Below are positions 12,049 to 12,927 of a stretch of DNA of 64,000 nt, one piece after another. The position numbers and the translations under genes were made by a program. The DNA lies in assembly GCA_018238545.1 (NCBI GenBank), contig JABCTC010000018.1, positions 1 to 64,000 of the forward strand, in the 5' to 3' direction. The stretch is from Candidatus Heimdallarchaeota archaeon. GTDB taxonomy: Archaea; Asgardarchaeota; Heimdallarchaeia; Heimdallarchaeales; Heimdallarchaeaceae. Position 1 is the stretch's first letter. Each line of letters starts with the position of its first letter. Under the pieces are notes generated by a model. The model was not told where the DNA came from, ran no database searches, and saw only the letters and a list, made by a program, of their open reading frames with translations.

Positions 12049-12927
12049 GTGTCAATCGATGATTATTTAGATACCTTGCTTTCTGGTAGTTCTGAACCTA
12101 CTAGTAAAGCAATCAAGAAATTGACAAAACTTCTCGAGAATTTCGGAGCTATTATGGTTGCTTCTACCGAGAGGATGGAGGATTATATTACCGGTTTAGA
12201 TTCACGAATTACCACAATTGAGAGAGATTTAGGCGTTTCCTCTGGATCTACTTTAACAAATTCAGCTCCTGCAAGAGCTCCTGCAAGAGCTCCTGCAATG
12301 GCTAATCCCACTCCAGCTGCAGCCCCTTCAACGGGTGCTCCAAACCTTTCTGCAGCTCCAAACCTTTCAGCTGCACCGGCGATGGGTGCACCAAACCTTT
12401 CTGCAGCTCCAAATCTTAGTAGTGCTCCTTCTGGTGGAGGAACAGCTGCTCCTGCTCCAGCGCCTAGTAGTGGAGGAGGGGGGATTTCAAGTACTGATTT
12501 AATGAAAGCAGCTTCAGGCTTAACAAAAGCTCCTGAACAACAACCAAAAGAGATGGTTGACGCAGCTTCACTCAGTCCATCGGGAGTTAGTGTTACAGCT
12601 ATTCAAGATGTTAAAGCAGGATTGAAGAAAGTAGACCAAGATGAACATAGAAAAGAAAGAGCTGCAGCGGCTTCTGGCGGATCTAGTGGTTCGATGCCCG
12701 CTTCTATGGTTCTAAACATGGAGGTTAAAGATGCTTTAGCGAAGAGAAAATCACGTTCTAAAAAAGCTGATGATGATGAAGATGAAGAAGATGATTTTGC
12801 TCCAACTCAAGCTGCTCCCGCTGCGCCTAAACGCTCAACAAAACAGATGAAAGAAGCACTACAAGGAGAATTACGAAACGCCTTTAGTAGTTTACTTGAA
12901 AGTGATACACAAGAAGAAGAAAAGTAA
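12049..12927 (+). CDS. Putative actin regulator: coiled coil + Pro/Ala linker + 2 WH2-like motifs + central helix + acidic tract (WAVE/WASH/VASP-like)
   Basis: ORF track gives 11995-12927. GTG 12049 is preferred because TTTTTATA lies at ~12013-12020. Motifs ISSTDLMKAASGLTKA, VSVTAIQDVKAGLKKV, LNMEVKDALAKRKSR and DDDEDEEDDF. Confidence 0.65.
   Translation: MSIDDYLDTLLSGSSEPTSKAIKKLTKLLENFGAIMVASTERMEDYITGLDSRITTIERDLGVSSGSTLTNSAPARAPARAPAMANPTPAAAPSTGAPNLSAAPNLSAAPAMGAPNLSAAPNLSSAPSGGGTAAPAPAPSSGGGGISSTDLMKAASGLTKAPEQQPKEMVDAASLSPSGVSVTAIQDVKAGLKKVDQDEHRKERAAAASGGSSGSMPASMVLNMEVKDALAKRKSRSKKADDDEDEEDDFAPTQAAPAAPKRSTKQMKEALQGELRNAFSSLLESDTQEEEK
12264..12429 (+). repeat. In-frame tandem repeats encoding (APAR)n and (G)APNLSA units
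   Basis: AGCTCCTGCAAG about 3 times (12264-12298), then four GC(T/A)CCAAA(C/T)CTT units. Confidence 0.8.

Follow-up and report, generated by a model that had tools for sequence, protein, structure and literature searches.

The protein encoded at positions 12049-12927 (+) of a 64,000-nucleotide stretch of Heimdallarchaeota DNA, referred to as a whole as the window, carries a conserved and probably trimeric helix and belongs to an undescribed Asgard family. This helix bears a likeness to the trimer core of the WAVE and WASH complexes, membership of which is not established. We hold, with a probability of about 0.5, that the coiled-coil segment is the oligomerisation domain of a vertically inherited Asgard protein family that has so far escaped description. 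Actin regulation in Asgard archaea is ascribed mainly to profilins and gelsolins (PMC13716822, PMC12050087), and the main text of two structure-based surveys makes no mention of BRK1, CCDC53, WASH, WAVE or VASP (PMC12962969, PMC13734099). A trimer spread across the phylum, which acquires WH2-like repeats in the class closest to eukaryotes, would be a candidate for a missing nucleator or elongator of actin. Should the helix be a true relative of BRK1 and CCDC53, how the WAVE and WASH complexes arose could be tested on small soluble proteins, and true ancestry would point to an archaeal origin of these eukaryotic actin-assembly complexes; if the likeness is convergent, the family is still a conserved and undescribed one.

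The gene is present in a single copy, starts with GTG and encodes 292 amino acids; the ATG of its relatives aligns with this GTG. A TTG at 12040 is a possible alternative start, and an ATG at 11995 was judged unlikely and rejected, the upstream extension being devoid of conservation. All features of the protein lie on the (+) strand. A short N-terminal helix (residues 3-11, 12055-12081), found throughout the Asgard family, packs against the bundle in the trimer model and is followed by the coiled-coil helix (residues 18-61, 12100-12231), which is predicted to be a parallel trimer; the 44-residue peptide highlighted by the first-pass annotation is the translation of this segment. Within the helix lie a heptad stutter (M36-T40, 12154-12168), defined by core residues of the model and as distant from the conserved Arg as in BRK1 and WAVE1 (the WAVE1 register being author-assigned), and an RhxxhE trimerisation motif (R53-E58, 12205-12222), whose R53 and E58 are invariant among the aligned close homologues. 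A disordered Ala/Pro/Gly linker with APNL repeats (12232-12477), including a 12-bp tandem repeat (12264-12298), leads to two repeats termed WH2/GAB-like by resemblance only: a helix followed by LTKA (12478-12543), which is without a model match, and a helix followed by LKKV (12580-12645). An amphipathic-then-basic helix (12697-12768), without PDB support, aligns with an end helix found Asgard-wide and is C- or FAB-like by resemblance. It is followed by an internal acidic tract of variable length, lacking Trp and with a Phe at its end (12769-12798), and by a C-terminal amphipathic helix (12835-12921) that is near-invariant in the family and repeats the end-helix pattern. The neighbours of the gene in the window are housekeeping genes. 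Downstream, 13042-15156 (+) encodes a beta-CASP nuclease with a 300-residue unannotated N-terminal part, a constant neighbour in Heimdallarchaeaceae, and 16921-19641 (-) holds a 906-residue UDP-glucose dehydrogenase-like reading frame with an intein-like insert.

Named close homologues come from Heimdallarchaeaceae or unassigned Asgard archaea and are all annotated as hypothetical. The gene is present in 24 of 27 other Heimdallarchaeaceae genomes, usually between a threonine-aldolase-like gene and the beta-CASP gene. Weak matches lead further to proteins of 130-190 residues in the Odin, Freya/Jord and Loki lineages; in hhalign the Heimdall group is joined to the Odin/Freya group at 92%, and a joint family profile finds matches in 200 of 300 Asgard genomes. 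Some 40 fetched loci share a layout of short helix, coiled coil, Pro-rich linker and end helix of the ELKxLFxKR type. The long forms of Heimdallarchaeia, found in four families, have between one and three helix+LKK[AVT] repeats inserted in this layout, and one group stays short. The coil differs in length across the family and the stutter register is therefore not universal. Members sit among lineage-specific housekeeping genes, and no actin gene was seen next to a member at any inspected locus.

A literature search, which covered the main text of the structure surveys, retrieved no published description of the family. The ESM Atlas returned a low-scoring Asgard cluster and no named one, and Foldseek with the full-length model gave nothing at E 0.001; a lone helix cannot discriminate folds. 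In a profile search of 1.8 billion proteins, Asgard-type members were intermixed with repetitive coiled coils, and no BRK1-like sequence was seen among the approximately 57 full-length hits inspected. Several variants of the layout were encountered on the way. In relatives from a sister family, long GPNLG repeats are followed by three tandem helix+LKK[AVT] repeats (L112:1087-2244, L113:967-1932, L114:974-2032, L115:942-2225), and short sister-family paralogues consist of the coil and a Pro-rich tail, without repeats or end helix, and are candidate BRK1-like small subunits (L121:944-1333, L122:865-1350, L123:882-1268, L125:958-1326). The cultured Ca. Lokiarchaeum ossiferum has a member with several PPPPP tracts (L172:1501-1959) adjoining the Elf1-like UYP45915.1; by adjacency the member should be UYP45916.1, and its tag, narrowed to a range of five, is probably NEF87_002201.

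That the coiled coil zips up as a parallel trimer is, on the model, probable. Three copies of residues 1-65, the single stoichiometry run, were modelled as a parallel in-register homotrimer with a score of 0.69, compared with 0.01 for the best of three controls; the mark for such scores was attained by 20 of 30 solved homo-pairs and by 1 of 23 monomers, counts that hold only approximately for three copies, and the score may stem from resemblance to solved trimers. At least 92% of the contacts are common to the runs, partner pLDDT is at least 80, and the contacts pair like with like (25-25, 36-36, 50-50, 57-57). The RhxxhE motif, in most cases a signature of parallel trimers (PMC3653964), is present in 54 of 57 close homologues and 30 of 43 distant members, and the top PDB look-alikes of the coil are nearly all trimers. 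Motif, model and look-alikes thus all support the trimerisation proposed for this helix in the first-pass annotation.

The same annotation had aligned the helix by eye with human BRK1. The BRK1 segment used there equals residues 25-68 of PDB 3p8c_E exactly, and the gapless identity is indeed 11/44, with a BLOSUM62 score of 43. This match is the top scorer among 963,227 segments of 44 residues from the 3191 reading frames of the organism's own proteome, in which 93 segments have at least 11 identities to BRK1. The core positions and the stutter M36-T40 share BRK1's register. In shuffles that keep the heptad register, the similarity of the peptide to BRK1 gave p=0.003, or p=0.03 when RhxxhE was fixed as well, and family means gave p 0.015-0.045. 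The BRK1-WAVE1 pair, in the same test, scored 18 (p=0.17), below the Asgard-BRK1 score.

We rate the chance slightly short of even that the segment is a generic short trimeric coil whose match to BRK1 arises from the heptad core, the stutter, RhxxhE and the luck of one genus. The generic motif supplies 3 of the 11 identities, and removal of the RhxxhE tail lowers the rank of the gene against BRK1 in its own proteome to 17. Most orthologues score lower: 27 of them give 5-11 identities and scores of 21-46, mostly 23-28, so that the match is partly lucky for the genus of the window gene. The gene ranks 69 of 3191 against Dictyostelium Brk1 and 819 of 3191, with 5/44 identities, against the WAVE1 helix. 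Influenza HA2 can be aligned to these 44 residues without gaps and scores above BRK1. Convergence must nevertheless account for an excess similarity to BRK1 that persists with RhxxhE fixed (p 0.03-0.05), and for CCDC53 and WASH models whose preference for the family exceeds that of decoy trimer models.

Searched singly against Pfam and the PDB, the window peptide retrieves neither BRK1 nor CCDC53, and the whole protein gives no hit to the Pfam CCDC53 model (PF10152), through which all comparisons with CCDC53 were made. For the syntenic orthologue L023, CCDC53 is the top Pfam hit, at 25.4 bits for the whole protein (cut-off 24.6) and 17.2 bits for the helix alone over model positions 5-49, in the register taken by BRK1; BRK1 itself, as positive control, reaches 22.3 bits. 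Over 121 Asgard genomes, hits to the CCDC53 model include 7 family members out of 13, an enrichment that stems partly from the Pro-rich linker, into which 5 of the 7 extend, and 3 more hits come from a second family of the same layout. Among hits to decoy models, recognised family members account for 3 of the 83 with HSBP1 and none of the 21 with matrilin, counts that may be low given an incomplete member list. Across 43 members, CCDC53 does not figure among the 25 most frequent Pfam hits, spurious coiled-coil Pfam hits of members reach E 3e-5, and the Abi_HHR model hits no family member. HSBP1, good by eye, was tried as the closest relative and rejected, its model being non-specific.

Searched against the PDB, the family profiles give 17-36 bits to reovirus sigma-1, influenza HA2, VP35 and designed trimers; to BRK1, which is missing from their top PDB hits, they give 5-16 bits, in most cases with the register shifted by one heptad. 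With hhalign, family and BRK1 pair at 40%, in a shifted register, and at 7%, neither of them significant, values obtained with a BRK1 profile that is shallow, the homologue search having returned almost exclusively animal sequences. The proposed relationship to BRK1 and CCDC53 has fared unevenly: weak signals in one consistent register stand in its favour, and the profile test against coiled-coil decoys failed, unrelated trimers outscoring BRK1 with three family profiles. True homology is tentatively suggested by signals that are weak and in part selected, and common ancestry with the WAVE/WASH core cannot be proved from so faint a sequence signal.

A second gene of the same layout (G000:C94:28504-29364 (-), L139:2505-3365), with coil, Pro-rich linker and a different end helix, is found in all nine of the searched Heimdallarchaeaceae genomes. 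Its product is a candidate heterotrimer partner or ESCRT-I adaptor. Compared with the PDB-verified WAVE1 helix it ranks 2 of 3191, with 10/44 identities and p=0.002-0.005, and one of the two best Pfam hits of its orthologues is WASH_WAHD or HSBP1, WASH_WAHD in the case of two. Such observations favour a tentative reading in which the family comprises archaeal orthologues of the BRK1, CCDC53, Abi, WAVE and WASH helices, and its chains could form mixed trimers with the second protein, as WAVE, Abi and BRK1 do. The first rank of the window gene against BRK1, the single register throughout and the CCDC53-like layout of the short forms point the same way. Against this ancestry, every score but one is sub-threshold and the profile tests are negative; L023, L130 and L131 were selected because of their hits to these very models, and several pairings were tried; Abi_HHR finds no member, and neither CYFIP nor ARPC2 was found in the genome.

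The distance from the second gene to a UEV/UBC gene is 1.4 kb, and a Lokiarchaeia paralogue of about 420 residues has the coil-linker-end-helix module behind an Arf/Rag-like GTPase (L057:1198-2481, L075:1091-2338), with matches in frames of 412-438 residues in dozens of genomes of that family. Both arrangements, together with LxxRL in some end helices, would suit an ESCRT- or small-GTPase-linked membrane-remodelling adaptor without any role in actin, the coil serving as a stalk and the end helix as a MIM1-like or effector-docking element. We consider this improbable: relative to the MIM1 consensus, most members have Glu at the Arg position and a final Leu displaced by one residue, the tandem LKK[AVT] repeats are left unexplained, and the window gene itself has housekeeping neighbours. 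Family members also occur as tandem pairs (L056:85-973, L061:2156-3033), the L056 pair adjoining a Vps36-GLUE-like gene and a small GTPase. Directly upstream of a member in many Lokiarchaeia is a conserved all-helical gene of 210 residues (L058:2507-3145, L074:2787-3413), possibly BAR-like and without Pfam support. The Arf protein UYP48373.1, which co-immunoprecipitates with Lokiactin, is neither of the two A6 matches in the L. ossiferum genome.

In Heimdallarchaeia the helix+LKK[AVT] repeats are conserved and multiplied in tandem, and their pattern agrees with the WH2 core, in which a helix precedes a Leu, a pair of basic residues and one small hydrophobic residue (PMC9433394). Neither the Pfam WH2 models nor a WH2-repeat profile searched against the PDB gave a hit on them, and the end-helix profile returned nothing relevant from the PDB. 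No globular domain such as EVH1 was detected in the protein by Pfam or by modelling. A terminal acidic-Trp motif is absent, the protein having no Trp and an acidic tract that is internal and variable. The genome, which is 92% complete, encodes two canonical actins, a divergent actin-like gene (L097:1495-2979) and two gelsolins; ARPC2 (PF04045), CYFIP (PF05994) and profilin were not found in it, in searches run without a positive control. The WASH_WAHD model likewise gives no hit in this genome; its weak hits are to two distant members and to the second same-layout family. With no WH2-model hit, no terminal acidic-Trp motif and no ARPC2 found, the attribution of a VCA to this protein was not borne out. 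An Arp2/3-independent nucleator, elongator or bundler, like VASP or the tandem-WH2 proteins, fits better than a classical VCA, and we put this at about even odds.

The most likely mode of working, in our estimation an evenly balanced proposition, is the following. Three chains, all identical or including other proteins of the same layout from the cell, would wind together as a parallel coiled coil and would thereby cluster three flexible Pro-rich arms ending in short amphipathic helices. In Heimdallarchaeia each arm would carry one to three WH2/GAB-like repeats, enabling the trimer to bind several actin subunits at once and to nucleate, elongate or bundle filaments without Arp2/3, in a manner predicted to resemble Ena/VASP or the tandem-WH2 nucleators. 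The sequence, the family, the register and the model stand as results; oligomerisation in solution, actin binding and any ancestry are what we infer. A further proposal sees in this Asgard family the ancestor of the WAVE/WASH trimer core, with the Heimdallarchaeia chain, uniting a BRK1/CCDC53-type helix with tandem WH2 repeats, acting alone or with a WAVE/WASH-like second chain as a trimeric actin nucleator older than Arp2/3; it appears unlikely. The homotrimeric WAVE ancestor envisaged at the outset is not directly supported because the helix is nearer to BRK1 and CCDC53, which have no VCA, than to WAVE1.

Several known systems share part of this architecture. WAVE/SCAR and WASH have the same order of trimer helix, Pro-rich linker, WH2-like repeats, amphipathic basic helix and acidic tract; the window protein differs from them in a helix with only 5/44 identities to WAVE1, in lacking a terminal acidic-Trp motif and WH2-model hits, in its extra C-terminal helix and in a genome where ARPC2 was not found. 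Ena/VASP proteins, through their EVH2 region, and the tandem-WH2 nucleators Spire, Cobl and VopL act independently of Arp2/3. In EVH2, as predicted for the window protein, an oligomeric coil clusters Pro-rich, GAB/WH2-like and FAB-like helices, the VASP GAB sequence being confirmed in PDB 2pbd; the window coil is N-terminal and predicted trimeric, rather than C-terminal and tetrameric, and is unaccompanied by EVH1. HSBP1 and unrelated RhxxhE trimers (matrilin, coronin, sigma-1, HA2) present the same surface motif and often score equally or better, but they lack the arm of linker and helices, and with the HSBP1 and matrilin models the Asgard family does not stand out. BRK1/HSPC300 (PDB 3P8C chain E, 3PP5) and CCDC53 (PF10152) resemble the 44-residue helix in core register, stutter and Arg-anchored motif, and the short Asgard forms have CCDC53's layout of coil, linker and end domain. 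The window protein is set apart from both by its extra N-terminal helix and by a similarity below profile significance, and from BRK1, which has no arm, also by the CYFIP partner not found in its genome. Free BRK1 and CCDC53 are homotrimers (PMC8047104; 10.64898/2026.09.18.752629), as the window helix is predicted to be, and since the homotrimers of BRK1, CCDC53 and HSBP1 swap strands, mixing experiments are feasible.
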